Assembly: GCA_012799075.1 (NCBI GenBank)
Contig: JAAZLZ010000167.1
Coordinates: forward strand, 1-36,239
Length of the DNA: 36,239 bases
Reading direction: 5' to 3'
Source: Bacillota bacterium
GTDB taxonomy: Bacteria > Bacillota > Limnochordia > JAAZLZ01
In this document: positions 14,785 through 36,239 of the stretch, in pieces
How positions within the stretch are numbered: the stretch's first letter is position 1
Layout: each line of letters starts with the position of its first letter
Notes under the pieces: model-generated
What the model was told of the DNA's origin: nothing
The model's database searches: none
The model's input: the letters and a program-made list of their open reading frames with translations, nothing else
Made by a program: the position numbers and the translations under genes

Positions 14785-14816
14785 AAGAGGGGAGGGGCAA
14801 CTACCTCTCCTCTTTT
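14785..14816 (+). terminator. Intra-operon attenuator/terminator hairpin after dctP
   Basis: Stem aagaggggagg / cctctcctctt with 1 mismatch, then tt. Confidence 0.45.
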
Positions 14817-14845
14817 CAACTTCCCCTGTGAAGGGAGTTTGGCCA

Positions 14846-15310
14846 ATGGGTGTACTTGCTTTTCTGGAGAGACTGATTGCCAAGGTCGAAGACTTATTGG
14901 TGGTGGGTGCCCTGGTTGTCTTGTCAGCCAGTGTGTTCTTGGGAGTAGTCTTTCGCTATGTGCTGAATGCTCCCCTTACCTGGACCGATGAAGTTGCGCT
15001 CCTTGGCTTTGTGTGGCTTGTATTCATAGGCGCTGGCACTTGTACCAGGACCAGGTCTCATATGGGTATTGAAATGCTTGTCCGGCGGCTGTCGGAGCAA
15101 AGGGCGCTGCGTCTTCAGACCATTGGGAACGTGATCGTCATGGTCATCCTGGGGGTGCTCGTCTACTTTGGCATTCAACACGCGTTGTATGCAGCCCACA
15201 GTCGGACCACTGTCCTGGGGATTCCCTGGACTTATATTTTCTTGTCCGTGCCCGTAGGTTCTGGGTTCATGTTCATCCACCTGCTTTATCAACTATGGGG
15301 TAAGGACTGA
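14846..15310 (+). CDS. dctQ: TRAP transporter small permease (DctQ family)
   Basis: 4-TM protein with PLTWTDEVA and HMGIEML motifs. ATG 14846 sits 8 nt after AAGGGAG, so the ORF-track GTG at 14828 is probably too early. Confidence 0.85.
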   Translation: MGVLAFLERLIAKVEDLLVVGALVVLSASVFLGVVFRYVLNAPLTWTDEVALLGFVWLVFIGAGTCTRTRSHMGIEMLVRRLSEQRALRLQTIGNVIVMVILGVLVYFGIQHALYAAHSRTTVLGIPWTYIFLSVPVGSGFMFIHLLYQLWGKD

Positions 15311-15352
15311 TTTCCCAGGCAAGCCTGGGCATTAGACCAGGAGGAGACATCC

Positions 15353-16633
15353 ATGAAGATCGTAATGATCATCTTTGTCCTATTTGCTTTTGCCTTAGCT
15401 AATATTCCCATTGCCTTCGCCATCATCGCCTCGACCCTCATCACCCTGTGGGTGTCCGACGTATCCATCAGCATGCAGATTCAGCGCATGGTGGCGGGGG
15501 TTAATTCTTTTCCTCTCCTTGCGGTTCCACTCTATATCCTTGCTGGGGTGCTGATGGAATGCTCCGGGATTACGCCGCGCCTTTTTCGGCTCGCCGATGC
15601 ACTGGCCGGCCATATCCGCGGGGGGCTGGGCCATGTAAATGTGGTGGCGAGCATGATCATGGCGGGCATGTCCGGGTCGGCTATGGCCGACTGCGCGGTG
15701 ACAAGCAAGATTTTTGTGCCCGAAATGGTCAGAGCGGGTTATCCTAGGCCCTTCGCTGCCGCCGTAACGGCAGCTTCCTCCATTATCGGGCCAATAATCC
15801 CGCCAAGCATCATTTTCGTTGTTTACGGGTATTTATCCGGAGTATCCGTGGGTCGGCTGTTCATTGCTGGTGCGATCCCGGGCATTCTGGTTGGATTATA
15901 CCAAATGGTCGCGGTTTACTTTATTGCCAAACAACAAGGCTTTGGGCAGCCGAGTCATCGATTTTCATGGTCCAGTCTTTGGACCGTAATTAAGCAAACC
16001 TGGGCAGCCCTCTTCCTGCCGCCCATCATCCTCGGAGGAATTCTCTCTGGTGCTTTCACTCCAACGGAGGCTGGGGGCATCGCGGTGGTCTACTCGCTGC
16101 TTGTCGGTGTTTTCCTCTACCGGCAGCTCGGGCTGAAAGATGTCATCAGGGCCCTAAAGGACACTGCCGCCAGCACTGCTGCCTTGATGTTTATCGTGGC
16201 TGCGGCGGCTCCCTTCGGATGGATCTTGGGTCTTGAACAGGTCCCCCAGCTAATCGCAAGGGTATTTACCTCCATATCCACGAATCCTGCCGTGATCCTG
16301 TTCTTGATCAACATCCTGTATCTGTTCTTAGGAACCTTTATGGACATTACACCTATCCAAATCATTACCATACCAATGCTGATGCCGATCATCAATCAAC
16401 TGGGGATTGATCCGATCCATTTCGGGGTTGTCTCGTCTATTGCTCTAATGATTGGCGCCATCACCCCGCCGGTGGGTACATTGATGTATTGCACCTGTGA
16501 GATTTCCAATGTATCCATTGAGGATTTCCTTAGGAGCGTTTGGCCCTTCTACTTGGCCCTTGTTGCCCTGTTGTTTACCGTAACGTACGTACCGGCGTTG
16601 ACCCTCTGGCTGCCTAGTGTGGTCTTCGGGTAA
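15353..16633 (+). CDS. dctM: TRAP transporter large permease (DctM family)
   Basis: 426 aa, multi-TM, with GGLGHVNVVASMIMAGMSGSAMAD and GPIIPPSI motifs. Confidence 0.9.
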   Translation: MKIVMIIFVLFAFALANIPIAFAIIASTLITLWVSDVSISMQIQRMVAGVNSFPLLAVPLYILAGVLMECSGITPRLFRLADALAGHIRGGLGHVNVVASMIMAGMSGSAMADCAVTSKIFVPEMVRAGYPRPFAAAVTAASSIIGPIIPPSIIFVVYGYLSGVSVGRLFIAGAIPGILVGLYQMVAVYFIAKQQGFGQPSHRFSWSSLWTVIKQTWAALFLPPIILGGILSGAFTPTEAGGIAVVYSLLVGVFLYRQLGLKDVIRALKDTAASTAALMFIVAAAAPFGWILGLEQVPQLIARVFTSISTNPAVILFLINILYLFLGTFMDITPIQIITIPMLMPIINQLGIDPIHFGVVSSIALMIGAITPPVGTLMYCTCEISNVSIEDFLRSVWPFYLALVALLFTVTYVPALTLWLPSVVFG

Positions 16634-16664
16634 TGGGCATCCTGAAACGTAAGGCTTGGTCGGG

Positions 16665-16701
16665 GAAGCAAGGTTGGGGACTTGCTTCTCTGGCTTTTTT
16701 T
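16665..16701 (+). terminator. Rho-independent terminator
   Basis: 8-bp stem gaagcaag / cttgcttc, then tctggcttttttt. Confidence 0.75.
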
Positions 16702-16778
16702 AGGATCCTTGGAGGAATGAATAGCCCAGAGGAGAAAGGAATTATCAGGGGATTCTTGCACTTAGGTGGGGTGACCGG

Positions 16779-17531
16779 ATGGAAAAAATCGGTTTTATTG
16801 CGCGAACCAGAGGGGAACTGGATGCCTTCAAGGAAGGAGTCATCATCATTCCTACCGGTACCACGGAACAGCACGGGCCCCATCTGCCCGTAGGAGTCGA
16901 CAGCTTCCTTGCGGAAACCATCGCCCTTCACGCGGCAAAGGAGCTAAGCACCCGGTTGCCGGTTTTGGCCGCGCCAACCTTGACTTATGGCAACTCCCAC
17001 CACCACTTATCTTTCGGGGGGACTATCTCCCTGCGAAGCGAAACCCTCATTGCCGTATTGAAGGACATTGGGATGTCCCTGGCGGAAAGCGGCTTCAGGA
17101 AGTTGTTCTTTTTGAACTCCCACGGGGGAAACGATGAGGCGGCCCGGCTGGTTGTAAGGGATTTGGCTAGAGAAGGGATCTGCGCAGCTGCAACCTCCTA
17201 TTGGACCGTTGCCTGGGATGCCCTTAAGGAGGCCGGCGCCTTGGACTCCGGGCGGGTGCCGGGGCATGCAGGCGGCTTTGAGACATCCTTGATGCTGTAC
17301 CTATATGGGGAGCTGGTCCAATGGGCTAATCGGCCGCCCTTAAGGGAAGATGCCAGCCCAAAAGAAGAGCCTGCTCGCCGGTTGTTCGTTCAGCTGCCCG
17401 GAGAAGGAGTGGGGAAGGATGGCTATAGCGACGATGCCCGCCATGCCTCGGCCGCGAAGGGGGAGCAGTACTTTCAGATTATCGTTTCCCAAGTGGCCCA
17501 GGCGGTGGAGGAGTTTTATCGCAGGATCTAA
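16779..17531 (+). CDS. Creatininase-family amidohydrolase
   Basis: 250 aa. GTTEQHGPHLPVGVD and LNSHGGN motifs are typical of the creatininase family. Confidence 0.8.
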   Translation: MEKIGFIARTRGELDAFKEGVIIIPTGTTEQHGPHLPVGVDSFLAETIALHAAKELSTRLPVLAAPTLTYGNSHHHLSFGGTISLRSETLIAVLKDIGMSLAESGFRKLFFLNSHGGNDEAARLVVRDLAREGICAAATSYWTVAWDALKEAGALDSGRVPGHAGGFETSLMLYLYGELVQWANRPPLREDASPKEEPARRLFVQLPGEGVGKDGYSDDARHASAAKGEQYFQIIVSQVAQAVEEFYRRI

Positions 17532-17541
17532 CGGAGGGGTA

Positions 17542-17570
17542 TTGACAGGGAAAATGGGTCCTTCTATAAT
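17542..17570 (+). promoter_or_regulatory. Consensus sigma70/SigA promoter
   Basis: TTGACA (17542-17547), exactly 17 nt of spacer, then TATAAT (17565-17570). It lies about 40 nt upstream of the hcp start. Confidence 0.65.
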
Positions 17571-21814: not shown

Positions 21815-21841
21815 CTCGCCTGGGATGGGAGAGTGGCGCTG

Positions 21842-22519
21842 ATGAAAAAGCCAGCACGGGAACGTCGGACTTCTTATGCCGATTGGGCATACAGGCAAAT
21901 CCGGGATGCCATCATTTGGTGGGATTTGCAGCCGCGGGAGATGATTTCGGAAAACCAGCTGGCCAAGAAGCTCCACATCAGTCGGACTCCTGTACGCGAG
22001 GCGCTGTTGCGTCTACAAAGAGAAGGTCTAGTTGAGATCAAGCCCCAGCGAGGGGCTTTTGTGTCTCCTATCCGGGTTAATGAGGTTCTCCAGGCCCGCT
22101 TGGTTCGAGAGGTCCTCGAAGTGACGGCAGTCAAAGAGGGATTTGATCGAATCGGGGCCGATGAATTGCTGGCGATGGAGAAGGCCCTCGACGATCAGGA
22201 GAAGGCTGCCCTAGCGCGAGACTTTCGCGCTTTCATTGATGCCGATGAGGGTTTCCATCAAGTCATTCTGGATGCTGCTCAGAACGAGAAGCTCAAGGGA
22301 GTTGTAGCCCAGATGCGGTTGCACCTTCTAAGGGTCAGGGTGTGGGCCTTGCCTGTAGCTGAACGCTTTCGATTGATGATTGAGGACCATAAATCCATTT
22401 ACGAGGCCTATCGGGAGCGAGACTTGGAGCTTGCCGTTGCTCGGATGGAGTCTCATTTGCGACGTACCAAAGAAACCTGTGCCACCATCGTGAATCAAAA
22501 TCCCTTTTTGTGTACTTAA
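21842..22519 (+). CDS. GntR-family transcriptional regulator (FadR/FCD subfamily)
   Basis: Winged-HTH region ISENQLAKKLHISRTPVREAL plus an all-helical C-terminal FCD-like domain. Confidence 0.85.
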   Translation: MKKPARERRTSYADWAYRQIRDAIIWWDLQPREMISENQLAKKLHISRTPVREALLRLQREGLVEIKPQRGAFVSPIRVNEVLQARLVREVLEVTAVKEGFDRIGADELLAMEKALDDQEKAALARDFRAFIDADEGFHQVILDAAQNEKLKGVVAQMRLHLLRVRVWALPVAERFRLMIEDHKSIYEAYRERDLELAVARMESHLRRTKETCATIVNQNPFLCT

Positions 22520-22617
22520 GATTTCCAATCCCACTTGAGAAAGGAGGTTCTCGGGAAGAAGCTGGGAACTTGGTTCTATTGGCATGTGTCAATCACGAAA
22601 AGAAAGGGTGTCAGCTA

Positions 22618-23607
22618 ATGAAGAAAACAGGATTAGCAATTGTCATCATGTCCCTTCTGGTGTGTATGTTGACCCTGCCAGCGGGTGCAGCTCAGGTGTG
22701 GAAGATGGGTCACATCATGCCCGCCGAAAGCCCCGTCGACATGGCGGCCCAAAAATTGGCTGAGCTGGTCAATGAAAGGACCGATGGCCGGATCAAGATC
22801 GAGATCTTCCCGGCTAGTCAGCTGGGCAGCCAGAATGATATGTATGAGCTCTTGCGGATGGGTGCCATGCAGATGATGTGGGCGGGGGACTATGTGGCCA
22901 TGCGGGCTGTGCCGGAATTCGAAGGCGTTCACTGGCCTTACATCTTCAAGAACGAGGATCACGCGGCGGCCTTCATGGAAACCCCCTTGGGTCAGACTTG
23001 GCGGGAAGAAACCCGCAAGCGGACCGGAATTAGGACCATCGGTTATGTGATCCGCAGTGCTCGTCACCTAACGACAAACAAGCCCGTTTATAGTGTCAAG
23101 GATGTCAAGGGCATGAAGCTGCGCAGCTCTGAGAATCCTGTTTACATCCAGGGGTTCGGCTCCATGGGCTTTGTGGTCACACCCATCGCCTTCGGCGAGC
23201 TGTTCACAGCCCTCCAGCAAGGTGTGGTGGAAGCCCAGGAAAACCCCTTCGACATGATCTATGGCCATGGACTATATGAAGTGCAAAAATACTTGGTACT
23301 TACCGGTCACCAGTACAGTCTATACCAGCTGCACATGAACGATAAGCTTTTCCAATCCATAAGTCCTGAAGACCAGGAAATCCTCATGCAATCAGTTGCG
23401 GATGCCTGCCAGTACGGCAACGAGTTGACCAAGGAGATGGAGGACGAGCTCTTTGCCAAGCTTAAGGCTACTGGCATCAAAGTCATCGGGCCTCCCGAGT
23501 TGGATGTGGACAGCTTCCGGAAAGCATCTGCCACCATTCCCCAGAACCTGCTTGATAAGTGGTGGCCAGGTTTTGTCGAGGCCGTTAGGGCGTGTGAACC
23601 CAAGTAA
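22618..23607 (+). CDS. dctP: TRAP transporter substrate-binding protein (DctP family)
   Basis: ATG 22618 gives a signal peptide, MKKTGLAIVIMSLL. Contains ALQQGVVEAQENP. The ORF-track start at 22510 overlaps the GntR gene and adds a non-signal extension. Confidence 0.9.
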   Translation: MKKTGLAIVIMSLLVCMLTLPAGAAQVWKMGHIMPAESPVDMAAQKLAELVNERTDGRIKIEIFPASQLGSQNDMYELLRMGAMQMMWAGDYVAMRAVPEFEGVHWPYIFKNEDHAAAFMETPLGQTWREETRKRTGIRTIGYVIRSARHLTTNKPVYSVKDVKGMKLRSSENPVYIQGFGSMGFVVTPIAFGELFTALQQGVVEAQENPFDMIYGHGLYEVQKYLVLTGHQYSLYQLHMNDKLFQSISPEDQEILMQSVADACQYGNELTKEMEDELFAKLKATGIKVIGPPELDVDSFRKASATIPQNLLDKWWPGFVEAVRACEPK

Positions 23608-23614
23608 GGACGAG

Positions 23615-23646
23615 GGCGGGGCGAAACCCGCCCCGCCACTGTTTTC
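23615..23646 (+). terminator. Intra-operon attenuator/terminator hairpin after dctP
   Basis: Perfect 9-bp stem ggcggggcg / cgccccgcc, then actgtttt. Confidence 0.5.
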
Positions 23647-23662
23647 CTGGGAGGTGAGTAGT

Positions 23663-24139
23663 ATGCTCAAGAAGTTCGATCGGGGCCTGGACGCGGTACT
23701 TACATTTTGCGGCGCCTTGTTGTTTTCTATTGCCCTGGTGATTACGGCTGTGCAGGTGTTCTTGCGCTATGCCATCAATCAGCCTTTGTTTTGGGCGGAA
23801 GAACTGGCTCGTCTTTGCTTTCTATGGATGATTTATGTAGGCTCGATCCTGGCCGTTCGTTATGATAAGCATATGGTCGTCGATATCTTCTATGAGACCC
23901 TCCCCCAGTGGGGAAAGCGCATACTGGATACGATAGTCTTGGTTGTTGTCGGTGTTTTCCTGATCGTGCTGACCAAAGAAGGGTATGGACTGGTATTGGC
24001 GGAGATGACCAGCGTAACCCCAGCCATGCAGATAAAGGTGGGCTATGTTTATTCCATCATCCCCTTGGCGGGGTTGGCGATGCTCTTTTACTTAGTATTT
24101 CCCTATAAGCCGGCCAAAACCAGCAGCCTTTCGGAATAG
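23663..24139 (+). CDS. dctQ: TRAP transporter small permease (DctQ family)
   Basis: ATG 23663 follows GGGAGGTGA. Contains PLFWAEELA and HMVVDIF motifs and 4 TM segments. Confidence 0.85.
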   Translation: MLKKFDRGLDAVLTFCGALLFSIALVITAVQVFLRYAINQPLFWAEELARLCFLWMIYVGSILAVRYDKHMVVDIFYETLPQWGKRILDTIVLVVVGVFLIVLTKEGYGLVLAEMTSVTPAMQIKVGYVYSIIPLAGLAMLFYLVFPYKPAKTSSLSE

Positions 24140-24151
24140 GGGGTGTAAACC

Positions 24152-25432
24152 TTGTCCGGACTATATCTTTTGCTTGGACTGTTAATCCTGCTTTTCTTGC
24201 GGGTGCCTATCGCCTTTGGTCTGGGAGCCGCATCCCTCGGGTATTTACTTGTCAGGGGGGGCATCCCCTTAGGGGTGGTGGCCCAGCGGATCAACGGCTC
24301 AATGAACTCCTTTGTGCTGCTGGCAGTTCCATTTTTCATGCTGGCAGGAAAGCTCATGAATACCGGGGGCATCACCAGGCGGATCTTCAATTTTGCCAAC
24401 GACTTGGTGGGACATATCCCCGGGGGCTTGGGACATGTCAATATTGTGGCCAGCCTGATCTTTGCTGGCATGTCGGGTTCCGCGGTGGCCGATGCCGCCG
24501 GGCTTGGGACCATCGAGATCAAGGCTATGAGGGATGCAGGCTTTGACGATGACTTCAGTGCCGCGGTGACGGCAGCCTCTTCGACCATTGGGCCAATTAT
24601 TCCGCCCAGCATTCCGATGGTTTTGTACGGCGTCATGGCTGAGGTATCCATCGGCAGGCTATTCGTTGGCGGCGTAATCCCAGGCATCTTGATGGCGGTC
24701 ACCCTAATGATCTTCACCTACTTCGTGGCCAAGCGAAGGGACTACCCCTGCAGAGAGAAAGTCGATCTCCGACGGCTGAGCAAGAGCTTTGCTGAAGCCT
24801 TTCCACCACTACTGGCACCGGTCATCATCGTCGGAGGCATCCTGACAGGGGTGTTTACACCCACCGAGGCCGCGGTGGTAGCCGTATTATATGCTTTCTG
24901 CCTTAGTTACTTCATCTACAGAGAACTGCCCCTCGAAGAGATCCCGGGGATGGTGAAAGAAGTGGTCATCAGCACCGCATCCATCATTCTCATCGTGGGC
25001 TGCGCTAGCCTGTTCGGCTGGATTCTCACCTGGGAGCGGGTACCCCAAGTACTAGCCCAGTCCATGTTCGGCATTTCCAACAATCCGACCGTTGTGATGT
25101 TGTTGATGGTCGTCTTCCTGCTCTTCGTGGGTACTTTCTCCGCAGCAACTGCTTCCCTGGTTGTCCTGGTTCCAATCTTCAAACCCTTGATGAGCCAAGT
25201 GGGCATCGACCCTGTTCACTGTGGGGTAGTGATGGTTCTGACTCTCATGATTGGGCTCTTGACTCCTCCTGTTGGCTCCGTGCTCTATGTTACTGCGGAG
25301 GTGGCAGGGATTTCCGTTGCCAGGATGATCAAAGCGGTGACCCCGTACCTGATTCCCCTGCTAATCACCGTTTTGATGCTGGTGTTTTTCCCGGGCCTGG
25401 TGACGTTTTTGCCCAATTTGCTACTAGGATAG
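24152..25432 (+). CDS. dctM: TRAP transporter large permease (DctM family)
   Basis: 426 aa and a paralogue of the 15353-16633 gene, sharing GGLGHVNIVASLIFAGMSGSAVAD and GPIIPPSI. Confidence 0.9.
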   Translation: MSGLYLLLGLLILLFLRVPIAFGLGAASLGYLLVRGGIPLGVVAQRINGSMNSFVLLAVPFFMLAGKLMNTGGITRRIFNFANDLVGHIPGGLGHVNIVASLIFAGMSGSAVADAAGLGTIEIKAMRDAGFDDDFSAAVTAASSTIGPIIPPSIPMVLYGVMAEVSIGRLFVGGVIPGILMAVTLMIFTYFVAKRRDYPCREKVDLRRLSKSFAEAFPPLLAPVIIVGGILTGVFTPTEAAVVAVLYAFCLSYFIYRELPLEEIPGMVKEVVISTASIILIVGCASLFGWILTWERVPQVLAQSMFGISNNPTVVMLLMVVFLLFVGTFSAATASLVVLVPIFKPLMSQVGIDPVHCGVVMVLTLMIGLLTPPVGSVLYVTAEVAGISVARMIKAVTPYLIPLLITVLMLVFFPGLVTFLPNLLLG

Positions 25433-25448: not shown

Positions 25449-26450
25449 TTGGCTAAACTTACACCAAGGGAGCGAGTCCTGACGACCCTGGCCGGGGGGA
25501 TTCCCGATCGGGTCCCCTGGATTGAGTCGGGCATCGATCCCGCAGTTGCGGAAAAGCTTTTGGGACGTCCCGTGTCTGTGCCGCCCCGGATCAGGATGGA
25601 CCCGGCACTCATGGATATGCTGAATCTAGACAACGTCGGGTTCAATCTTAAACCCCCGGATGTTGTCGAGCGCACTTTTTCCGGGGGTGTTGATTATGTG
25701 GGGGATGGCTTGATCAAAGGTTGGGATCAGCTGGAATTCTTGCTGGAGCAGCTTCCCGATCCCCATGATGAGAATCTCTACAAGCCCATCAATGACTACT
25801 TGAAACACCATAAGAGGGACTATGCAGCTGCCTGCGGCTTGCGAGCAGGGATGGCCAATACCTACCTTAGTATGGGCATCGAGACTTTTTCCCTGGCGTT
25901 GTACGATGACCGCAAGTTCGTCGAGACGGTGATGGACATCTTCAACGACTGGACCTTAGCCGTGGTGGAGCATGTCAATGAAATGGACTTTGATTATGTC
26001 ATCATTTCCGATGACTTAGCCCACAGCGCCGGGCCCTTGTTTTCACCCCAGGTCTTCCGGGAGCTTTTTGTTCCTCGCTACAAAAGGGTGGTTGAGAAAC
26101 TAAAAAAACCCTGGATTCTCCATACCGACGGGAACTTCTTGCCCCTGATCGATGATATGTTGCCCCTGGGCATGAGCGCCATCGGCAACCTGGAACCGGC
26201 GGCCGTTGATATTGTGCAGCTGAAGAAAGACTACGGCCATCGAGTGGGGTTGCTGGGGAATATCGATCTCCACTACACCTTGACCAGGGCAACGGAGGAG
26301 GAGGTCGAAGCCCAGGTGAAGCTGAGGATCTCCCAATTGGCCTCCGGAGGACGGTATCTACTGGCCAGTGAAAACTCTATTCCGTCATATGTTCGGCCGG
26401 AAAACCTCTTGGCCATGAGCCGGGCGGTGGAAAAGTACGGATACTACTGA
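25449..26450 (+). CDS. Uroporphyrinogen-decarboxylase (URO-D) family protein; function unknown
   Basis: 333 aa. N-terminus LTPRERVLTTLAGGIPDRVPW is typical of URO-D/MtaA-like proteins. It has HTDG (26121-26132) where methyltransferase-type members carry HxCG. TTG start follows AGGAAGGAGG, 16 nt after dctM. Confidence 0.7.
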   Translation: MAKLTPRERVLTTLAGGIPDRVPWIESGIDPAVAEKLLGRPVSVPPRIRMDPALMDMLNLDNVGFNLKPPDVVERTFSGGVDYVGDGLIKGWDQLEFLLEQLPDPHDENLYKPINDYLKHHKRDYAAACGLRAGMANTYLSMGIETFSLALYDDRKFVETVMDIFNDWTLAVVEHVNEMDFDYVIISDDLAHSAGPLFSPQVFRELFVPRYKRVVEKLKKPWILHTDGNFLPLIDDMLPLGMSAIGNLEPAAVDIVQLKKDYGHRVGLLGNIDLHYTLTRATEEEVEAQVKLRISQLASGGRYLLASENSIPSYVRPENLLAMSRAVEKYGYY

Positions 26451-26477: not shown

Positions 26478-27417
26478 ATCCCTTCTCTAGGATCGCCCGG
26501 AGGACATTGGCATAATCTTCGCTTTCTCGATCGGAAGTTGCGATTTCGATGCTGTCTGGGCTGGTGATTCCCAGGCCGAGCTCGCCCGCCCGTCGGATTT
26601 GCTCCTGGGCAAAGATGGGCTGGTCTTCGATTTCGGGAGTGGTGCCCAGTTCCTTGAGGATGGCCACACCCACCGCATCGACAGCGATCCTATCATAACC
26701 CGCCCAAAAAACATTGGCCCGCTTATGCTGACCCGTTGCCGGCCCCCCGCTAACAAAGGCATCAACACCGTCCATGATGATTAGACAGGGATGATAGGCG
26801 TAGTTGATTTCAGCGATCATTTTCCGGATATCGGGGGACGCATGGAGCTCCTTCATGTATTCATGGCCCCGGCGGGGAACTAGGCCCACGGCCAGTTTCA
26901 AAGAAAGGGTGAAGATGCCGCCGAATTGATGGGTCTTCAGGCAGCCGGTAGCCACAATCCGGGGGGCCTCGGTGACTATCCGGGGTACGATGAATCCGTT
27001 CTTCCAGTGGCTCCCGGGTGGATTGACATGCACCCATTCTTCCGGGGGCAAATCATCGAAGTTAATCAGATCGATGTCTAGTTCCTCCAAGAGTTCGGGA
27101 ATGCCCTTTTCCCTGAGGACATCGGCTGTCAAGGGCGGACCGCTCCGTTCGCCGATGGTGATCTTCCTCGCCCCCTGGCTGCGCAGGGCCGCAACCAGAG
27201 CCCGCAGGGTGTCGTTATGGGTTGAACCCGGTGCAGGATCGCTAGTATTGAAGTTTGGCTTGATGAGGACATCTTGACCAGCGACGGTGTTATCCAACAG
27301 CTCCATGCACCGTTGGACGCCCTGTTTACGATCGGGGGTCTTCACTAGTGCTATCCGCGCCTTCTTCGCCGTACCATGCCTTCCTTCCATAGCTTTGCAG
27401 GCGGTCCTACATTGCAT
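26476..27417 (-). CDS. DUF362-family protein
   Basis: 313 aa. The pattern IALVKT...GQDVLIKPNFN...GSTHNDTLRALV is typical of DUF362. ATG sits 7 nt after GAGGAGG. Confidence 0.6.
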   Translation of the reverse strand: MQCRTACKAMEGRHGTAKKARIALVKTPDRKQGVQRCMELLDNTVAGQDVLIKPNFNTSDPAPGSTHNDTLRALVAALRSQGARKITIGERSGPPLTADVLREKGIPELLEELDIDLINFDDLPPEEWVHVNPPGSHWKNGFIVPRIVTEAPRIVATGCLKTHQFGGIFTLSLKLAVGLVPRRGHEYMKELHASPDIRKMIAEINYAYHPCLIIMDGVDAFVSGGPATGQHKRANVFWAGYDRIAVDAVGVAILKELGTTPEIEDQPIFAQEQIRRAGELGLGITSPDSIEIATSDRESEDYANVLRAILEKG

Positions 27418-27512
27418 TGGCAGGCCTCCTCTCCGGTTTGCTGCCTTTATTCCCCGTGGGGAGGGGGATTCCTGCCGGCAATTCCGTATTCAAAGCAAAA
27501 TTCACGCAAGAC

Positions 27513-27977
27513 CTAGGACTGAATCTGGCTGACCCGACAAGGCGTCCCCCCGGTGATAGTCAGGAGTTGCTCGACGGAGACGGGCACTGCCGAGTTGGGA
27601 GTCCCCGCCGCATCATAAACCACCGGGAACCTTTCCATGCTCAAATCGATCAAGACGGGCAGGTCCTGGGCAACGCCGAAGGGGCACACCCCTCCCGGAG
27701 CATAACCCGTCAGCTCCAAGGCTTCTTCCGGGCTGGCCATCCGCATCTTCTCGCCAACGGTCTTTCTTAGGGATTTGTTATCGATCCTAGTATCGCCGCT
27801 TGTTACCACTAAGACAGCCTTGGTTTTGCCGACGAAGGCTAGGGTCTTAGCTATCTGACCCACTTCCACTCCCAGGGCCTGGGCCGCTAGGTCTGATGTG
27901 CGGGTGCTTTCTTCCAGTTCGATGATTCGCAACCCGTACGGATCGAGAAATTCCTTTACCTTGTCTATTGCATCCAA
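27513..27977 (-). CDS. YbaK/ProX-type aminoacyl-tRNA deacylase domain protein
   Basis: 154 aa with AAQALGVEVGQIAKTLAFV and GGVCPFG motifs. TTG start sits 6 nt after GGGAGGAAG. Confidence 0.75.
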   Translation of the reverse strand: MDAIDKVKEFLDPYGLRIIELEESTRTSDLAAQALGVEVGQIAKTLAFVGKTKAVLVVTSGDTRIDNKSLRKTVGEKMRMASPEEALELTGYAPGGVCPFGVAQDLPVLIDLSMERFPVVYDAAGTPNSAVPVSVEQLLTITGGTPCRVSQIQS

Positions 27978-28136
27978 TGAATACTTCCTCCCTTATTGAA
28001 TTGCTTGTCGTACTATCTTGGCTAACTGGTTTGCCTTATCCTTCCCCGCTTTGGATTGGTCAGCAATCAAAGCAGGAGATTGCCTTTTTCTTGAGAACCC
28101 ATAAGCAGTATAAGAGGTCAGCGGGGTGATGGGCAA

Positions 28137-29687
28137 TTGGAAGGAGGCCGCAACCGTTTTCGTGAAGCCCTTAGAACAGAATTCGTTGTAACCTGGGAGC
28201 TTGTTCCCGGAAGAGGAGCTTTCGGGAAGGCCCAAGAGGACATCTTTCAAGCTGTGGAAAGACTTGCCGGGGACGGGCGGGTGCATGCTTTGACCATAAC
28301 CGACAACCCCGGGGGCGATCCGGCGATGGCCGCCGATTACTTGGGAATGGAACTGGCAAGACAGGGAATCGAGGTCATCATTCACTTCACCTGCAAGGAC
28401 AAGAATCGCAGTCAAATCGAAAGCCAGCTCTATGCCCTCCACCGAGCTGGAGTGCATAACCTGCTGGTGATGAGCGGGGACTATCCGGCAAACGGCTGTC
28501 TGGGACGTCCCAAGCCGGTTTTCGACTTTGATCCGATCCACGTTCTGCGCATGATAGGCGAGATGAACGCGGGCTTTGAAGTCCCTGTCTTTGGTCCACC
28601 CGAGGTGCTGGCTCCGACGAACTTTTACGCGGGAGCTGCTGTATCGCCCTTCAAAAAAGAAGAGGGAGAGCAACTTGGCCAGTATTACAAGCTGAGGAAG
28701 AAAGTAGCGGCCGGCGCCCAGTTTATCATTACCCAGCTGGGGTACGATGCCCGCAAGTTCCATGAAGTGCTGCAGTTTGTGCGGAATGCCGGCTGGAACA
28801 TACCCCTCATCGGCAACATCTATGTACTTACCTATGGAATTGCTCGGCTGATGTATCAGAACCAATTGCCCGGGTGTGTGGTGACGGAAAAACTCATGGA
28901 AGAGCTTGTCCTGGAGAGACAAGGGGCCGACAAGGGGAAAGGCGCTCGCCTGCTGCGGGCGGCCAAGCTGTACGCCTTAATGAAGGGTATGGGCTATGCC
29001 GGTGTTCATATCGGAGGTCACGGTTTGAACTATGAAGATGTGATTTGCATCCTGGAAAAGGGGGAAGAATTAGTCCCCAATTGGCCCGAATTGGTGGGGG
29101 AGTTTGATTATCCCCAGGAGGACGGGTTTTACTACTTCCAGCGGGATGAAGCAACGGGGCTGAATACTCCCGAGCCGACAAACCGCAATGGAGCCTTGCC
29201 CGCCAAAGGCTTGGACAACCGGTTCTTCCGACTGCTTCATCACACCCTGTTCGATGAGCGAGGCATTTTCTATCATCCCATGCGTTTGTTTTCTAAAGTG
29301 GTCGATGGCACACGGTTAGAAGGACCTGTTACCTGGCTGGAGCACCTAATCAAGCTGATTAGCAACAACTGTCAACAGTGCGGGGACTGTGCCTTGTTTG
29401 ATCTTGCCTATTTATGTCCCATGTCCCAGTGCCCTAAGAATCAGCGCAACGGACCTTGCGGAGGAAGCTTTGAAGGTTGGTGTGAAGTTTACCCCAACAA
29501 GCGTCGCTGTCTCTATATTAGGGCCTATGAAAGGCTCAAGGCCTATGGGGAAGAGGACAACCTTGGGCGGTATGAGATACCTCCCTGCAACTGGAGTTTG
29601 CGCCACACTTCCTCCTGGTTTAATTTCTACCTTGGCCGGGACCATGGCAGCGGGGTATTGGATTTGACTGATGAAGGGAGAAGATAA
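28137..29687 (+). CDS. Methylenetetrahydrofolate reductase (MetF-like) fused to a MetV-like Cys-rich C-terminal domain
   Basis: 516 aa. The N-terminal ~300 aa are MTHFR-like (FVVTWELVPGRG, ALTITDNPGG, ITQLGYD). The C-terminal region has 8 Cys (29370-29510: CQQCGDC...LCPMSQCPKNQRNGPCGG...WCE...RRC), as in the MTHFR C-terminal/MetV domain. Confidence 0.8.
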   Translation: MEGGRNRFREALRTEFVVTWELVPGRGAFGKAQEDIFQAVERLAGDGRVHALTITDNPGGDPAMAADYLGMELARQGIEVIIHFTCKDKNRSQIESQLYALHRAGVHNLLVMSGDYPANGCLGRPKPVFDFDPIHVLRMIGEMNAGFEVPVFGPPEVLAPTNFYAGAAVSPFKKEEGEQLGQYYKLRKKVAAGAQFIITQLGYDARKFHEVLQFVRNAGWNIPLIGNIYVLTYGIARLMYQNQLPGCVVTEKLMEELVLERQGADKGKGARLLRAAKLYALMKGMGYAGVHIGGHGLNYEDVICILEKGEELVPNWPELVGEFDYPQEDGFYYFQRDEATGLNTPEPTNRNGALPAKGLDNRFFRLLHHTLFDERGIFYHPMRLFSKVVDGTRLEGPVTWLEHLIKLISNNCQQCGDCALFDLAYLCPMSQCPKNQRNGPCGGSFEGWCEVYPNKRRCLYIRAYERLKAYGEEDNLGRYEIPPCNWSLRHTSSWFNFYLGRDHGSGVLDLTDEGRR

Positions 29688-29688
29688 C

Positions 29689-30834
29689 GTGCAGGCAAGG
29701 GAAAGAGTATTAGCTGCGTTAAACCATCAAGAGCCCGATCGGGTGCCCTTCGATTTAGGTTCTTGCACCGGCACAAACATCGCCGTCAGGGCTTATCGGG
29801 CGTTAAGGGCCCACTTAGGGCTCCCCGACCGGGAGGTTCGCTTAAAAAGTCGAACGACCCAGCTGGCCCAGGTGGATGAGGATCTGTTACAAGCCTTATC
29901 CGTCGATGTTCGCGGGGTGATGCCACAGCCGCCGAGCAACTACCAAGCTGTCTTAGAAGAAGATGATGACTACTGGAAGCTGCGGGATGAATGGGGAATT
30001 GGCTGGCGGATGCCGAGAGTCGGTGGGTTCTACTTCGACATGTATGACCATCCCCTTGCCCATGAATACAACGTGGCCCTCGATGAATACAACTGGCCAA
30101 ATGGGAAGGATCCCGCCCGGATCGCAGGCCTGCGGGAACAGGCTATCGCCCACAGGGAGGCTGGCTATCTTGTTTGCTTCGGCGGTACCATCGGTAATGG
30201 GTTCTTGCATACAGGGACCCATTTGGAGGGCTTTGTCGACTTTTTCACCGACCTGGCCTTAGGGACCCCAAGGGCCGAGGGGATCTTAGACCGGGTCCTG
30301 GAAATCAAGCTTGATTTTTGGGGTCAGGTCCTGGATAATCTCGGGGACGTGGTGGATGTGGTCTGCGAACAAGACGACTTAGGCTCCCAGCGGGGTCCGT
30401 TCATTTCGCCGGATATGTACCGGAAGTACATTAAGCCCCGCCAGCAGATTCTCTTTGATTTCATCAAGAAGAAGGCCCCCGTTAAGCTTTACTTCCATTC
30501 CTGCGGCAGCGTCTATCAGTTCATCCCAGATCTCATCGAGGTAGGCGTCGATATCCTCAATCCTGTCCAAGTGAGTGCCGCGGAAATGTGCACCGATCGC
30601 CTTAAGAAGGAATTCGGCCGGGAGTTGGTGTTTTGGGGCGGTGGGGTGGATACGCAGGAAATCCTTCCCTATGGGACCCCCCAGCAGGTGAAAGATGAAG
30701 TAAAACGCCGCATCGATGATTTGGCTCCCGGCGGCGGCTTTGTGTTCACAACGGTCCACAACATCCAGGCGGACGTTCCCCCGGCCAATGTGATGGCCAT
30801 GTGGGAAGCCCTCCAGGAGCATGGCGTCTACTAA
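29689..30834 (+). CDS. URO-D family protein (methyltransferase-type HxCG variant); function unknown
   Basis: N-terminus RERVLAALNHQEPDRVPFDLGS and HSCG at 30496-30507. GTG 29689 sits 8 nt after AAGGGAG and 1 nt after the metF-like stop. ATG 29671 is an alternative start. Confidence 0.7.
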   Translation: MQARERVLAALNHQEPDRVPFDLGSCTGTNIAVRAYRALRAHLGLPDREVRLKSRTTQLAQVDEDLLQALSVDVRGVMPQPPSNYQAVLEEDDDYWKLRDEWGIGWRMPRVGGFYFDMYDHPLAHEYNVALDEYNWPNGKDPARIAGLREQAIAHREAGYLVCFGGTIGNGFLHTGTHLEGFVDFFTDLALGTPRAEGILDRVLEIKLDFWGQVLDNLGDVVDVVCEQDDLGSQRGPFISPDMYRKYIKPRQQILFDFIKKKAPVKLYFHSCGSVYQFIPDLIEVGVDILNPVQVSAAEMCTDRLKKEFGRELVFWGGGVDTQEILPYGTPQQVKDEVKRRIDDLAPGGGFVFTTVHNIQADVPPANVMAMWEALQEHGVY

Positions 30835-30852
30835 TTTCCGGGGGTATGCCCT

Positions 30853-31287
30853 ATGATCAATCGGCTGGGGAGAGTCGCGGGCGGCTTGATTCCAGTGATG
30901 TTGGGTCTTGTCATGCTCAACATCCTCATCCGGCTCATCTTTGGCTATCCTTTGCTTTGGGCCGGTGAACTGACGAAGACCCTTCTCCTTTGGATGGTCT
31001 TCGCCGGCGGCGCCGCGGGAATTGTGGAGGGCAGCCATTTGCGGATTGACGCCCTTTATTCCTGTTTGTCCCAGCCCCTCCGGAAGACGGCTGATTGGGC
31101 TTCGTTCCTCGTTGGGGCGGCAACCCTCCTTTATTTCACCACCTCGGGTTGCCGCTTCTTCCTTCGCTACCGGGGGTTTCGAGCCTGGTTATACGTGATT
31201 CCCCCCTTGGGTGGACTGTTGCTGTTGGCAGGCGCAGTGGAGAATCTCCGCCACCGCCTCCGGAATAAGGTTATCCCCCCTGGGTAG
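30853..31287 (+). CDS. Solitary DctQ-like small membrane protein
   Basis: 144 aa and about 4 TM segments, with DctQ-type PLLWAGELT and HLRIDAL motifs. No adjacent DctM or DctP. Confidence 0.6.
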   Translation: MINRLGRVAGGLIPVMLGLVMLNILIRLIFGYPLLWAGELTKTLLLWMVFAGGAAGIVEGSHLRIDALYSCLSQPLRKTADWASFLVGAATLLYFTTSGCRFFLRYRGFRAWLYVIPPLGGLLLLAGAVENLRHRLRNKVIPPG

Positions 31288-31555
31288 AATCAACGACCCA
31301 GATCGTTTGCCCAAACTGGATGGGAACGCTAAGGTCATGGATACGCTGGCTGCCCTGGGCGATCATGACCTGTCCGCGGCCGAAATCGGCTTCCAGACTT
31401 TCCAGGGCAGGGCTCATCTCCTTTAGGACAGTCAAGAGGTCGTTCAGGGTCGAGCCCATCTCCAGGGAGATCTTGAACCCTTCTCGCCTGTATTTGACAT
31501 CCAAGAGATCCCGATGGGGAGAAAAGACCTTGACCGTGATTACTCCCGTTGTCAC
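31271..31555 (-). CDS. MoaD/ThiS-family beta-grasp protein with C-terminal Gly-Gly
   Basis: 94 aa ending ...IWVVDSTQGG-stop. The layout ITVKVF...GSTLNDLL...V..N is MoaD-like. GTG start sits 6-7 nt after GGAAGGAGGGG, which lies inside the end of the upstream gene. Confidence 0.6.
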   Translation of the reverse strand: MTTGVITVKVFSPHRDLLDVKYRREGFKISLEMGSTLNDLLTVLKEMSPALESLEADFGRGQVMIAQGSQRIHDLSVPIQFGQTIWVVDSTQGG

Positions 31556-31556
31556 T

Positions 31557-32456
31557 TTACACCCCTCCTTCCCGATTCAATTGGTCCAAAAGCATCATCT
31601 CCCGGTTCTCTACGGGCGGCATGCCTGGACCGTACAGGCAGCCTCCTGCACAGGCTAAAAGCTCAAGGACCCGGGGGCCTTCCTTGTCCGGTCGAAAAGC
31701 CGCCAGGTAGTCCCGGCAGCGGTCCAGCCCGGAAATGGTCATCGCCAAAAGACCGATCCGGGACGTAGGCTCATAATCACCGTCCATCATCTCCTCGGGA
31801 AGCAAATCCAGCTGAATGCCTTCATCCTGCAGCCAGGCCCATAGTTCGGTGAAGGTAAGGACGCCGTTCGCTGCTCCCTTCTCCGTGGCAGCTTCCCTTT
31901 TCTTTGCTTGGCAGGGTCCGATGAATACTACTTTGCCCCCAGGCCCCAGCTTTTTTCGCAGAACGCGGCTGTGGGCCACCATGGGTGAGGGTAGGGGAGC
32001 AAGGTAAGGTACAAGATGGGGAAAATCCCCTTGAATTAGAGCTGCCACCGCGGGGCAGGATGATGAAAACACCGGCCCGCCCGATTGTTCCACCAGGAGG
32101 ATGCGGCTTCGGACAGTATCCTCAAGGACGGAGATGGTCTCCTCAACCCGGCAAAAGCCCAGCCCCCGCAAAGCAGCAACGATTTTCAGCGGTTCCTTAG
32201 CCAAAACACTGTAGGAGGGGGCAAGACTTACCGCCACATCGTAATCATCCGTCAGCCAGGCTCGGATCTTCTCCAACTGACTTGGAGCCCGAATCAAGCC
32301 GTGGGGGCACGCAGCAACGCAATGACCATCGGAAAGGCACTTATCCTCCAGCACTTGAGGTGTCTCTCCTTGGAAAACCAGGGCCCCACAAGGACAAAAC
32401 GCGACGCATATCCGACAACCGCGACAAAGACTTGCGTTTCCTCTTATTTCAATCAA
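31557..32456 (-). CDS. [FeFe]-hydrogenase-like protein (ferredoxin domain plus shortened H-domain)
   Basis: 299 aa. Has CRGCRICVAFCP plus a non-canonical CLSDGHCVAACP. H-domain motifs are SSSCP (32052-32066), GPCQAKKRE (31893-31919) and ELLACAGGCLYGPG (31623-31664). TTG start follows GGGAGGA. Confidence 0.75.
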   Translation of the reverse strand: MIEIRGNASLCRGCRICVAFCPCGALVFQGETPQVLEDKCLSDGHCVAACPHGLIRAPSQLEKIRAWLTDDYDVAVSLAPSYSVLAKEPLKIVAALRGLGFCRVEETISVLEDTVRSRILLVEQSGGPVFSSSCPAVAALIQGDFPHLVPYLAPLPSPMVAHSRVLRKKLGPGGKVVFIGPCQAKKREAATEKGAANGVLTFTELWAWLQDEGIQLDLLPEEMMDGDYEPTSRIGLLAMTISGLDRCRDYLAAFRPDKEGPRVLELLACAGGCLYGPGMPPVENREMMLLDQLNREGGV

Positions 32457-32705
32457 GGCCGTCCTCCCGCATTGGTCTTTGCATACTATTTGGTTGCCAA
32501 CGACGATATTCCTGCGCTGTCAGAGTGGAGCTACCATTATTCTAGGAGTCTAGTCTGTCTTTTGCCACTATAGGAGGAAATTAGCTCATTGGTGGCGTAG
32601 TCGATCTTGTAGGGAATCCCATTGGTGTCCCGTCTAGCTCCGGGAGGTGTACTATTCTAGGCTAGGACGGTAGATGCAAGAGAATCATCCGGGGAGGTGG
32701 CTGTA

Positions 32706-34555: not shown

Positions 34556-34825
34556 TCATCCTTTGAGTCCACTAAGTGTAATAGCCTTGACCACCCATTG
34601 TTGGAGTAAAAGAAAGACAACTACAACGGGAATGATGCTGATGATGGAGGCGGCAGTGGCCAAGTGGTACTCGATAAAGTACATGTTTGTAAACTCCGAT
34701 AAACCCATGGTTACGACTTTCATGGAGTCTGTACTAGTGATCACTAAAGGCCAAAAGAACTCGTTCCATGTCCAAAGGAATTTGATTATGCCCAAGGCAG
34801 CTAGGGCAGGGGATGTCCCATAATC
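34556..34825 (-). pseudogene. 3' remnant of a carbohydrate ABC transporter permease, truncated by IS insertion
   Basis: The C-terminal ~89 codons (PALAALGIIKFLWTWNEFFWPLVI...VVVFLLLQQWVVKAITLSGLKG) match MalG/AraQ-type permease ends. Similarity stops at the IS left inverted repeat (34826). The rest of the 141-aa ORF is read-through into IS sequence. Confidence 0.7.
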
Positions 34826-36239
34826 CGTGGAAATTGAGGTGGCGGTAACCAGCCTCGTTGTGATAGATTGGTTTTGACGAACAACAATCTCACAACATGG
34901 AGGTACCGCCAATGTCAGGATACCACGAGTCCAAAGAACATTCCAGTAAAATGACGGAAAAAGAACGCTGTGAAAAGGCAAGAGAGCTGTGCATGGTCAT
35001 GTCCTTCGCCCGACTTCAAGATGCCCTCAAGGATGGAGTGGTAGCCTTGTGCACAGCGGCTGGTCTGACCGTTCTCCAAGCTATGATGCAAGAACAAGTT
35101 ATCGAATTGACCGGACCCAAAGGCAAGCACAATAAGGATAGAGACTGTTACCGTCACGGGACCGAGCCTTCCAAAGTTGTTCTGGGAGGCCGAAAGGTCC
35201 CGATTGAACGCCCCCGTGTCAGAACCATCGATGGGCATGAGGTTCCCCTGGAGATCTACGAGTTGGTGAAGGATGATAATTCTCTGTTGGAAAGGGCTAT
35301 GGAGTTGATGTTACATGGGCTCTCTAGTCGGAATTATAAGCAGGCGCTCGAGTGGGAATTGGATGGTGAGCCCGGCTCCACTTCCAAGAGCACTGTTAGC
35401 CGCAATTTCATCAAGGCGACTAGGAAAGAGGCAGAACGGCTTCTTCATCGACGTTTTGATGATTTAGACATCCCCATTGTCATGATCGACGGTGTTCGCT
35501 TTGCCGAATACCACGTAATTATTGCCATGGGAATTACGATTGACGGCACCAAACGCATATTGGGGCTGCGTATTGGAAGCGCTGAAAACGCTACCGTATG
35601 TAAGGATTTATTAACCGATCTGCAGGAGCGGGGCTTGCATGCCAGTGATGGCCTGCTTGCCATAATTGATGGGTCGAAGGCCCTGAGGAGCGCCCTCAAG
35701 TTGGTATTCGGGAATCGAGTATTGATCCAAAGGTGCCATGTCCATAAGCTGCAGAATGTCCTTGATTATCTCCCCAAGGAGCAAAAGCCCTGGGTCAAAC
35801 GGAAAATGAGACAGGCCTGGTCGATGGACGATGCCGGGGAGGCTCTTCAGGCCCTTAGAAGCCTTGCAACATCGCTAGGGTCCAATTATCCGGATGCAGC
35901 AGCCAGTCTCCGTGAAGGCTTAGAAGAAACCGTTACGGTGCTCAGGCTTCAAATCAGCGGTCTTCTTCGCCAAACCCTCCGTTCAACGAATGCTATTGAA
36001 TCGCTCAATTACCAGGTCAAAAGTCGTACCCGAAACGTAAAGAACTGGAAGAATGGGTCCATGGTCCAACGCTGGGTGGCGGCCGGTCTGCTAGATATCG
36101 AGACTTGTTTGCGTCGAGTGAAGGGCTTCCGTGATCTACCGATGCTGAAGTCAGAAGTCCGCCGGCTGACCGTTGGGATCACAGACGGGGCAGGAAACGC
36201 ATGGGAATCAGCGTGATTCTGCGCCACCGAAATTCCACG
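34826..36239 (+). mobile_element. IS256-family insertion sequence (1,414 bp to the window end)
   Basis: Imperfect terminal inverted repeats: cgtggaaattgaggtggcgg (34826-34845) against the reverse complement of 36220-36239, cgtggaatttcggtggcgc (16 of ~20 positions with one gap). They enclose a mutator-type transposase gene. Confidence 0.8.
34912..36216 (+). CDS. IS256-family (mutator-type) DDE transposase
   Basis: Typical family blocks: IVMIDGVRF, LLAIIDGSKAL, IQRCHVHKLQNV and STNAIESLN. ATG 34912 sits 7 nt after GGAGGT; ATG 34897 is an alternative start. Confidence 0.9.
   Translation: MSGYHESKEHSSKMTEKERCEKARELCMVMSFARLQDALKDGVVALCTAAGLTVLQAMMQEQVIELTGPKGKHNKDRDCYRHGTEPSKVVLGGRKVPIERPRVRTIDGHEVPLEIYELVKDDNSLLERAMELMLHGLSSRNYKQALEWELDGEPGSTSKSTVSRNFIKATRKEAERLLHRRFDDLDIPIVMIDGVRFAEYHVIIAMGITIDGTKRILGLRIGSAENATVCKDLLTDLQERGLHASDGLLAIIDGSKALRSALKLVFGNRVLIQRCHVHKLQNVLDYLPKEQKPWVKRKMRQAWSMDDAGEALQALRSLATSLGSNYPDAAASLREGLEETVTVLRLQISGLLRQTLRSTNAIESLNYQVKSRTRNVKNWKNGSMVQRWVAAGLLDIETCLRRVKGFRDLPMLKSEVRRLTVGITDGAGNAWESA

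Follow-up and report, generated by a model that had tools for sequence, protein, structure and literature searches.

Do three tightly packed genes in a Limnochordia genome form a dedicated route by which methyl groups enter the folate pool, with a small membrane protein coupling the folate enzyme to the membrane? The question is raised by a stretch of 36,239 nucleotides of contig JAAZLZ010000167.1 (assembly GCA_012799075.1), which was analysed at its full length and is referred to here as the window. An earlier note, made from the sequence alone, had read there a methylenetetrahydrofolate reductase (MTHFR) fused to a MetV-like domain, a URO-D homologue and a solitary protein resembling DctQ, the small membrane subunit of tripartite ATP-independent periplasmic (TRAP) transporters, and had proposed that the last of these anchors the first. 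The three co-oriented open reading frames (ORFs), their gaps of 1 nt and 18 nt and the positions of their motifs were all confirmed:

28137-29687, forward strand: gene 1, MTHFR fusion of the single-chain MetF-MetV type, 516 aa (Pfam PF02219 and PF12225)
29689-30834, forward strand: gene 2, URO-D#2, MtaA-like member of the URO-D superfamily, 381 aa (Pfam URO-D)
30853-31287, forward strand: gene 3, DctQ-like ORF, 144 aa (Pfam DctQ), probably the relic of a TRAP operon

We found this arrangement to be specific to the lineage, with ordinary members of known families as its parts. On balance, we lean towards a conserved backbone reductase that received two lineage-specific additions rather than a three-part machine.

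Gene order in related genomes

The best matches of the window proteins were in Limnochordia metagenome-assembled genomes from digesters. On its right-hand side the trio is bordered by a convergent gene, and the order of genes differed among relatives as follows:

31271-31555, reverse strand: orf94 of the window, 94 aa, ending in Gly-Gly, with no Pfam or NCBIfam match
L182/L183 (Limnochordia outgroup): YbaK gene on the reverse strand, MTHFR gene (protein 66% identical), then directly an aldolase II gene
L010: MTHFR (88.2% identical), orf94 (reverse strand); neither URO-D#2 nor DctQ on the contig
L001: MTHFR (88.6% identical), URO-D#2 (91.6% identical), orf94 (reverse strand); no DctQ
L090-L095 (short contigs of the same population as the window): MTHFR, URO-D#2, DctQ, orf94 (reverse strand); the first three proteins of L090 are 96.5-98.7% identical

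Given that the order grows stepwise from L182/L183 through L010 and L001 to the window, the MTHFR gene is the stable element, behind which a variable spot gained first URO-D#2 and later the DctQ-like gene. In this Limnochordia lineage the MTHFR gene keeps its place next to a divergent YbaK-like gene, and orf94, 81-82% identical in L001 and L010, is the conserved right-hand border of the variable spot. In L001 and L010 the spacer between the convergent genes is a GC-rich hairpin, a place taken by dctQ in the window. URO-D#2 would have been added directly behind the MTHFR gene in the ancestor of the window and L001, and is probably co-transcribed with it; a promoter and terminator scan of positions 27400-32700 gave counts within shuffle expectation and no information on operon structure.

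The trio was seen only in the window's own population. We clustered the neighbours of the MTHFR fusion within 6 kb in 83 species-level loci, and a DctQ related to gene 3 stood beside the fusion in none of them; a DctQ-like gene was likewise absent from 84 loci with URO-D#2 homologues. The earlier note had treated the trio as a unit and had itself named missing synteny as what would speak against this; the synteny check found the trio nowhere else.

The MTHFR fusion is a widespread conserved family

Gene 1 has the two domains that the earlier note described:

28176-28910, forward strand: MTHFR TIM-barrel domain (PF02219, residues 14-258)
29334-29597, forward strand: Cys-rich MTHFR_C (MetV-like) domain (PF12225, residues 400-487)

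The barrel matched Pfam MTHFR with 86.9 bits (cut-off 24) and the C-terminal part matched PF12225, "MTHFR C terminal", with 97.5 bits (cut-off 23). In an alignment with 20 homologues, all eight cysteines of the latter (C412, C415, C418, C427, C432, C441, C449 and C458, spanning 29370-29510) were invariant, as were the barrel motifs TWE (E21), GDYP (D115) and TQL (Q200), whose E21, D115 and Q200 we take to be the counterparts of E. coli E28, D120 and Q183. The barrel is a remote match to solved MTHFRs, with an HxT...GD block that aligns with Thermus MTHFR 1v93. Scores against the NCBIfam equivalog models TIGR00676 and TIGR00677 were far under their cut-offs, and gene 1 is therefore not a classical NAD(P)H-dependent MetF. 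No hydrophobic or transmembrane segment was present (maximum Kyte-Doolittle value 1.17), and the ratio of non-synonymous to synonymous substitution rates (dN/dS) between the window and the population variant L090 was 0.09. We also looked for a riboswitch as a pointer to a methionine-biosynthetic role, and found no Rfam match to an S-adenosylmethionine or other riboswitch upstream of the fusion in the window, L001 or L007-L009. Gene 1 would thus far be described as a soluble single-polypeptide reductase with a flavin TIM barrel and a C-terminal eight-Cys domain of the Fe-S or Zn type. We infer that it interconverts methyl-tetrahydrofolate (methyl-THF) and methylene-THF with a low-potential partner other than a pyridine nucleotide, as has been inferred for type II MetVF, and the direction of flux given below is likewise our proposal.

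While the earlier note had considered the fusion noteworthy, it belongs to a very large conserved family that is already annotated in Pfam and at NCBI. A search of 5.8 billion proteins returned more than 4,272 matches at E<=1e-10; every match listed had the PF02219+PF12225 architecture at about 520 aa, which is the founding architecture of PF12225, and NCBI names these proteins "MTHFR C-terminal domain-containing protein". Mean column identity in the family was 72%, across Bacillota, Thermodesulfobacteriota, Chloroflexota and others, and a scan of one genome per species found the fusion encoded in at least 498 species, with carriers including Desulfosporosinus, Desulfitobacterium, Thermincola, Natroniella, Holophaga, Terracidiphilus, Syntrophaceae, Anaerolineae and Methylomirabilis. 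Our literature search found no directly relevant report of a characterised fused MetF-MetV. We therefore see in the fusion no oddity of this window but an annotated family not yet studied biochemically.

The gene neighbourhoods of this family point to methyl transfer. At least one corrinoid methyl-transfer component (the activator RACo, a Pterin_bind methyltransferase, a corrinoid protein or MttB) lay within 6 kb of the fusion in 26 of the 83 loci: RACo and the pterin-binding methyltransferase in 22 each, a corrinoid protein or a URO-D::B12 fusion in 19 (leaving out L010, which is in this cluster through its URO-D#1 paralogue alone; URO-D#1 is described below) and an MttB-family methyltransferase in 9. 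A URO-D gene near the fusion was confined to Terracidiphilus and Syntrophaceae. In Desulfosporosinus the fusion closes a conserved cluster (L024, L026, L045, L046, L055, L058, L063, L068, L084 and L085), with the order MttB, corrinoid protein, Pterin_bind, HAD, RACo and MTHFR fusion complete in 8-9 loci; MttB and HAD were missing within 6 kb of the fusion in L084 and L085. A small DUF6951 protein is encoded 3' of the fusion in 11 loci, about 7-9 of them from Desulfosporosinus. The Syntrophaceae locus L040 (UBA5619, positions 1-17545) runs TRAP, Pterin_bind, Fhs, FolD, MTHFR fusion, Pterin_bind, URO-D::B12, dctPQM and URO-D::B12. A full methyl-oxidation island of the same kind was also seen in L073. 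The fusion gene stands alone in Thermincola, Desulfitobacterium metallireducens and Selenihalanaerobacter.

Given that the fusion lies amid corrinoid methyl-transfer genes in many loci, the family seems to have been recruited recurrently for methyl-THF derived from demethylation. This context lends indirect support to the methyl entry route into folate that the earlier note had suggested; the part of that suggestion that found no support is the membrane-anchored MTHFR. Since about one third of the species have the fusion in corrinoid demethylation islands, it is likely the methyl-THF-oxidising enzyme of many non-acetogenic anaerobic methylotrophs. As a single chain, it would also be a simpler model than the two-subunit MetVF for the question of the electron partner.

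URO-D#2 as a candidate corrinoid-dependent methyltransferase

The start of gene 2 is most likely the GTG at 29689, which follows an AAGGGAG Shine-Dalgarno-like sequence, leaves a gap of 1 nt to gene 1 and agrees with the starts of homologues; with the ATG at 29671 as start, the protein would instead have 387 aa. The protein matched Pfam URO-D with 72 bits (cut-off 23.9), as expected from the earlier note, and carries the following motifs:

30496-30507, forward strand: HSCG (H270-x-C272-G)
30631-30657, forward strand: FWGGGVDTQ
30727-30741, forward strand: PGGGF
30757-30759, forward strand: invariant His of VHNIQ

The His and Cys of HSCG were invariant among 26 homologues, and the invariant motifs of the family are H270-x-C272-G, NPxQ, FWGGGxDTQ, GGGFxF and H357-N-x-Q. 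As a single sequence URO-D#2 had no match among PDB sequences, and only the family profile reached MtaA and HemE; its best match was MtaA (4ay7, E 9e-6), with the HxC of the family aligned to the zinc-ligand motif HICG of MtaA. In Foldseek, a confident AF2 model (pLDDT 92.5) had MtaA 4ay7 at the top (E 8e-14, TM-scores 0.66/0.73), followed by UROD and then MetE. The HemE equivalog model TIGR01464 scored 15.1 bits, far from its cut-off of 302.95. Between the window and L090, dN/dS was 0.07.

The family is very large (at least 8,000 matches), and some of its members adjoin corrinoid proteins. A corrinoid protein was found near the URO-D#2 homologue in 7 of 80 metagenome loci, at a distance of at most 600 nt in 5, and the homologues beside corrinoid proteins share 41-57% identity with URO-D#2. 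Loci in which such partners adjoin a homologue include L097, L098, L100, L117, L136, L137 and L151. In the Armatimonadota locus L097, the 57%-identical homologue closes an operon of corrinoid protein, Pterin_bind, Fhs, NIR_SIR and URO-D genes, while a 33%-identical homologue occurs in Terracidiphilus islands together with RACo, a corrinoid protein, Pterin_bind and the MTHFR fusion. The small NIR_SIR (sulfite/nitrite reductase-like) gene of L097 lies between Fhs and the URO-D#2 homologue, within positions 7147-9152, and overlaps the URO-D gene by 4 nt.

From these matches and neighbourhoods we judge it somewhat more probable than the alternatives that URO-D#2 is a corrinoid-dependent methyltransferase whose partners are encoded elsewhere in the genome. 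It would be a metal-dependent (His-x-Cys) MtaA-like enzyme working with a corrinoid protein, a pterin-binding methyltransferase and an activator, such that the methyl group of an imported methylated sugar or organic acid would be transferred to THF and then oxidised by gene 1.

Several observations weigh against this assignment. More than 90% of the URO-D#2-family loci have no nearby corrinoid protein, and most of them contain LacI/GntR regulators, ribose-type ABC transporters, FGGY kinases, GFO/IDH/MocA proteins and zinc-dependent alcohol dehydrogenases, with fucose-isomerase-like genes also among these sugar-type neighbours. Neither an MTHFR fusion nor a TRAP gene was found near URO-D#2 homologues in any of the 80 metagenome loci, and the missing MTHFR counts against the proposed coupling. 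Although the MtaA/CmuA models ranked best in NCBIfam, their scores stayed well below the cut-offs (TIGR01463, 50.7 bits versus 235.4; NF040654, 40.6 versus 400), and the third zinc ligand of MtaA, the Cys of PGCG, is a Gly (PGGG) in the URO-D#2 family. No corrinoid protein, methyltransferase 2 or activator was present in the window or within 10 kb in the relatives. In agreement with the earlier note, tblastn with bona fide examples detected no corrinoid protein, pterin-binding methyltransferase, RACo, MttB, FolD or Fhs in the 36-kb window, and among window ORFs of at least 100 aa the DxHxxG motif occurred once, in an antisense frame. The idea of URO-D#2 as a methyltransferase is partly supported, by its closeness to MtaA in profile and fold and by the corrinoid proteins beside its homologues at 41-57% identity; the window itself offers no such partner.

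The alternative that fares best is that URO-D#2 and its paralogue URO-D#1 are not methyltransferases at all, but metal-dependent or cofactor-free enzymes acting on sugars or organic acids, such as decarboxylases or isomerases, and that URO-D#2 came to lie behind the MTHFR gene by chance insertion. This would fit the sugar-type, corrinoid-free loci of most family members and the lost third ligand, as well as an invariant, HemE-like His357 located 8 residues past the PGGG position; moreover, Foldseek scores against UROD were just slightly weaker than those against MtaA, and the MTHFR does without URO-D#2 in L010 and L182. However, the HemE model fails by a wide margin (15 bits versus 303), sequence profile and fold both rank MtaA first, with its zinc ligands aligned to the invariant HxC, and the corrinoid proteins, Pterin_bind and Fhs directly adjoining several homologues are hard to explain otherwise. 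We therefore regard this alternative as a serious but clearly less probable one.

The paralogue in the window is located upstream of the trio:

25449-26450, forward strand: URO-D#1, second URO-D paralogue, 333 aa, with HTDG (26121-26132) instead of HxCG (Pfam, NCBIfam)

URO-D#1 is 25% identical to URO-D#2 and 27% identical to the URO-D domain of a Syntrophaceae URO-D::B12-binding fusion. In other loci, an HxCG gene of the URO-D#2 type often directly adjoins a paralogue with HxDG, the type of URO-D#1 (L134, L146, L150, L152, L155, L156, L165, L166 and L169), suggesting that HxC and HxD proteins act in pairs. Speculatively, and with small probability, the HxC and HxD proteins could cleave methyl groups from O-methylated sugars or sugar acids, as part of a hitherto undescribed anaerobic pathway that depends on corrinoids. 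TRAP or ABC transporters would import the substrates, and the methyl group would pass to THF and be oxidised by the single-chain reductase. If true, such a pathway would parallel, under anoxic conditions, the P450-based demethylation of carbohydrates in aerobes; our literature search on corrinoid-dependent sugar demethylation found nothing directly relevant. Independently of this proposal, a large MtaA-like URO-D family with a conserved His-x-Cys, located mainly in sugar-utilisation loci, merits biochemical attention.

At least three URO-D paralogues were also observed within 15 kb in the Limnochordia locus L004 (1492-4405 and 10001-16214), where a 94-aa ORF and a gene resembling cobyrinic acid a,c-diamide synthase (CbiA/GATase_3) come after one of them.

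The DctQ-like gene is probably a TRAP operon relic

Gene 3 begins 18 nt behind gene 2, with a GGGGG ribosome-binding site. It matched Pfam DctQ (PF04290) with 70.1 bits (cut-off 28.3) over profile positions 1-131 of 132, and of the approximately four transmembrane segments read by the earlier note, three were strongly hydrophobic (above 1.6 on the Kyte-Doolittle scale), while the expected third helix was weaker. No DctM or DctP occurs in its immediate cluster, where the convergent gene comes next. In this sense, the earlier statement that gene 3 has no such partner was correct; for the window it was not, given two complete systems:

22615-25432, forward strand: complete dctP-dctQ-dctM TRAP system (Pfam DctP, DctQ and DctM), with DctM at 24152-25432
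13754-16633: other complete dctPQM system

A word-based search returned one close homologue of gene 3, P0241, from the same population; in an exhaustive HMMER scan of 1.84 billion representatives, the next-best relative was 37% identical and the remainder about 30%. This nearest relative, P0242, belongs to a canonical dctP-dctQ-dctM operon, with dctM beginning right at the stop of dctQ. Compared with P0242, gene 3 has an 8-residue deletion in the loop between transmembrane segments 3 and 4, and the similarity reaches residue 139 (...RLRNK), which corresponds to the dctQ/dctM boundary. Homology with L001 and L010 begins exactly where this similarity ends, at the orf94 stop codon: the DctQ-derived sequence of gene 3 ends at about 31269, and its final 17 nt (31271-31287) read the 3' end of orf94 in antisense. 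The stop codon itself is polymorphic, as the TAG at 31285-31287 is TTG in six other contigs, where the ORF extends to 159 aa with 15 more codons antisense to orf94. A recent copy of a DctQ of the window was considered as the origin of gene 3 and ruled out, given identities of 26% and 30% in partial alignments.

Because gene 3 is an orphan with a TRAP-operon relative, ends at the dctM boundary, has a polymorphic stop and carries the loop deletion, it is most likely a dctQ left after deletion of the remaining TRAP operon. The earlier note had allowed for a decayed TRAP remnant, and this possibility fits both the operon of the nearest homologue and the junction. Gene 3 would accordingly be a strain-specific, divergent relic of a truncated operon with no folate role. 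Its dN/dS of 0.29 (5 non-synonymous and 6 synonymous changes, 11 in all) exceeds the 0.07-0.09 of its neighbours and fits decay, which is suggestive but not decisive. On the other hand, an ORF that is intact in 7 independent contigs, has a plausible ribosome-binding site and shows dN/dS below 1 is not what a relic would readily lead one to expect.

These same features, together with the full-profile Pfam match, would suit a functional DctQ, serving as an alternative small subunit for the DctM at 24152-25432 or for another TRAP large subunit and acquired along with URO-D and TRAP uptake genes; the dctPQM system at 22615-25432 and the solitary DctQ are both specific to the window lineage. However, that operon, 7 kb upstream, has its own DctQ, which is 26% identical to gene 3; the two operon DctQs of the window score 103 and 105 bits on PF04290, well above gene 3; and the loop deletion, weak third transmembrane segment, lost native C-terminus and polymorphic stop all argue against function. 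We thus consider a working DctQ unlikely, and infer that gene 3 is non-functional.

Less probable roles for genes 2 and 3

A further explanation would be that URO-D#2 is a corrinoid-independent, MetE-like zinc methyltransferase that passes the methyl group of methyl-THF from the adjacent reductase to a thiol or another nucleophile. The H-x-C motif is common to the zinc sites of MetE and MtaA, MetE structures were among the fold matches of URO-D#2, the gene adjoins the MTHFR gene and is probably co-transcribed with it, and the window lacks a corrinoid protein. However, the MetE matches were weak (TM-scores 0.45-0.53, E >= 1e-6), no pterin-binding element was identified in URO-D#2, its adjacency to the MTHFR gene is confined to one lineage, and other family members adjoin corrinoid proteins, which leaves a MetE-like role highly improbable. 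Least credible of all is the proposal of the earlier note that the DctQ-like protein serves the fusion as a membrane anchor or coupling subunit of its own, tethering it and linking methyl-THF redox chemistry to the membrane: although the three genes follow each other closely in one direction and are probably co-transcribed, and although the dctQ ORF is uninterrupted and shows dN/dS below 1, no DctQ lies beside the orthologous MTHFR in the two closest relatives (L001 and L010), the outgroup L182/L183 or the species-level fusion loci, the reductase family is highly conserved without it, the scan of 1.84 billion representatives gave nothing above 37% identity to gene 3 beyond its own population, the nearest relative there being an ordinary TRAP subunit, and the C-terminal tail of gene 3 comes from antisense read-through and ends at a polymorphic stop. 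With the small membrane protein read as a strain-specific leftover and not a conserved partner, the question of MetF bioenergetics is not opened by this locus.

Other features of the window

The TRAP system preceding URO-D#1 also varies among the relatives. It sits between URO-D#1 and a regulator gene:

21833-22519: GntR/FCD regulator gene

In L001 and L010 the GntR gene is followed directly by URO-D#1; gain or loss of the transporter is thus again specific to the lineage, and it puts a TRAP system together with a URO-D paralogue. Downstream of the trio, positions 31557-32456 (reverse strand) encode a 299-aa short [FeFe]-hydrogenase-like protein with two 4Fe-4S motifs that is conserved together with orf94; in L001 this gene was called as two pieces and may be disrupted. 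Towards the end of the window (34556-36216), a 141-aa fragment (34556-34981, reverse strand; no Pfam match) is similar to the C-terminal portion of a sugar ABC permease. Its neighbour is a transposase gene of the Mutator family (IS256-like; 34897-36216), and the insertion sequence may have interrupted the permease gene. Relatives carry transketolase genes after the aldolase gene, where the window has the insertion sequence and the permease fragment. Finally, positions 11102-13366 (reverse strand) contain genes for a radical SAM protein like glycyl-radical-enzyme activases and for a SelA/aminotransferase class V-like protein, and no adjacent glycyl radical enzyme gene was seen.

Comparison with known systems

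The closest characterised counterparts of gene 1 are the type II MetVF enzymes of the acetogens Clostridium ljungdahlii and Thermoanaerobacter kivui (PMC8760232, PMC8515935). Both combine a PF02219 catalytic module with a Cys-rich PF12225 MetV module, and neither has a recognisable NAD(P)H-binding subunit or a membrane segment. While the characterised MetVF enzymes consist of separate subunits (PMC8760232), with metV upstream of metF in acetogens, gene 1 is one chain of 516 aa with the MetV-like domain at its C-terminus. The fusion family is also mostly stand-alone or located in demethylation islands, unlike the acetogen MetVF in acs/Wood-Ljungdahl pathway clusters.

Corrinoid methyltransferases of the URO-D superfamily have been described in bacteria in Mlp clusters (PMC10418091) and as methyltransferase 1 (MT1) of the O-demethylase and CdmB type (PMC13222342). 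URO-D#2 resembles the MtaA/MtbA-type enzymes in its URO-D fold, in having 4ay7 as best profile and structural match and in the placement of H-x-C on the zinc ligands; it differs in the Gly that replaces the third Cys ligand, in the additional invariant FWGGGxDTQ and VHNxQ motifs, in the lack of a corrinoid protein and activator in the window and in a family context that is typically sugar utilisation. Gene 3, similarly, has the full-length PF04290 match and approximate size of a TRAP DctQ, but neither an adjacent DctM or DctP nor the native C-terminus, which has been replaced by read-through sequence.

At the level of whole loci, the corrinoid islands of Desulfosporosinus, Terracidiphilus and Syntrophaceae share with the window the same reductase family (57-61% identity); those of Syntrophaceae and Terracidiphilus also hold URO-D-type methyltransferases, and those of Syntrophaceae TRAP transporters as well. 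These islands contain a corrinoid protein, a methyl-corrinoid:THF methyltransferase and an activator, whereas the window lacks all three and has, of the gene set for demethylation and methyl-THF oxidation, just the MT1 candidate and the MTHFR. A demethylating enzyme gene clustered with a MetF that oxidises the resulting methyl-THF is also found in ligM-metF-ligH of Sphingobium sp. SYK-6, an aerobic system in which the demethylase is THF-dependent, corrinoid-free and of another fold, and MetF is of the classical NAD(P)H type without MetV.

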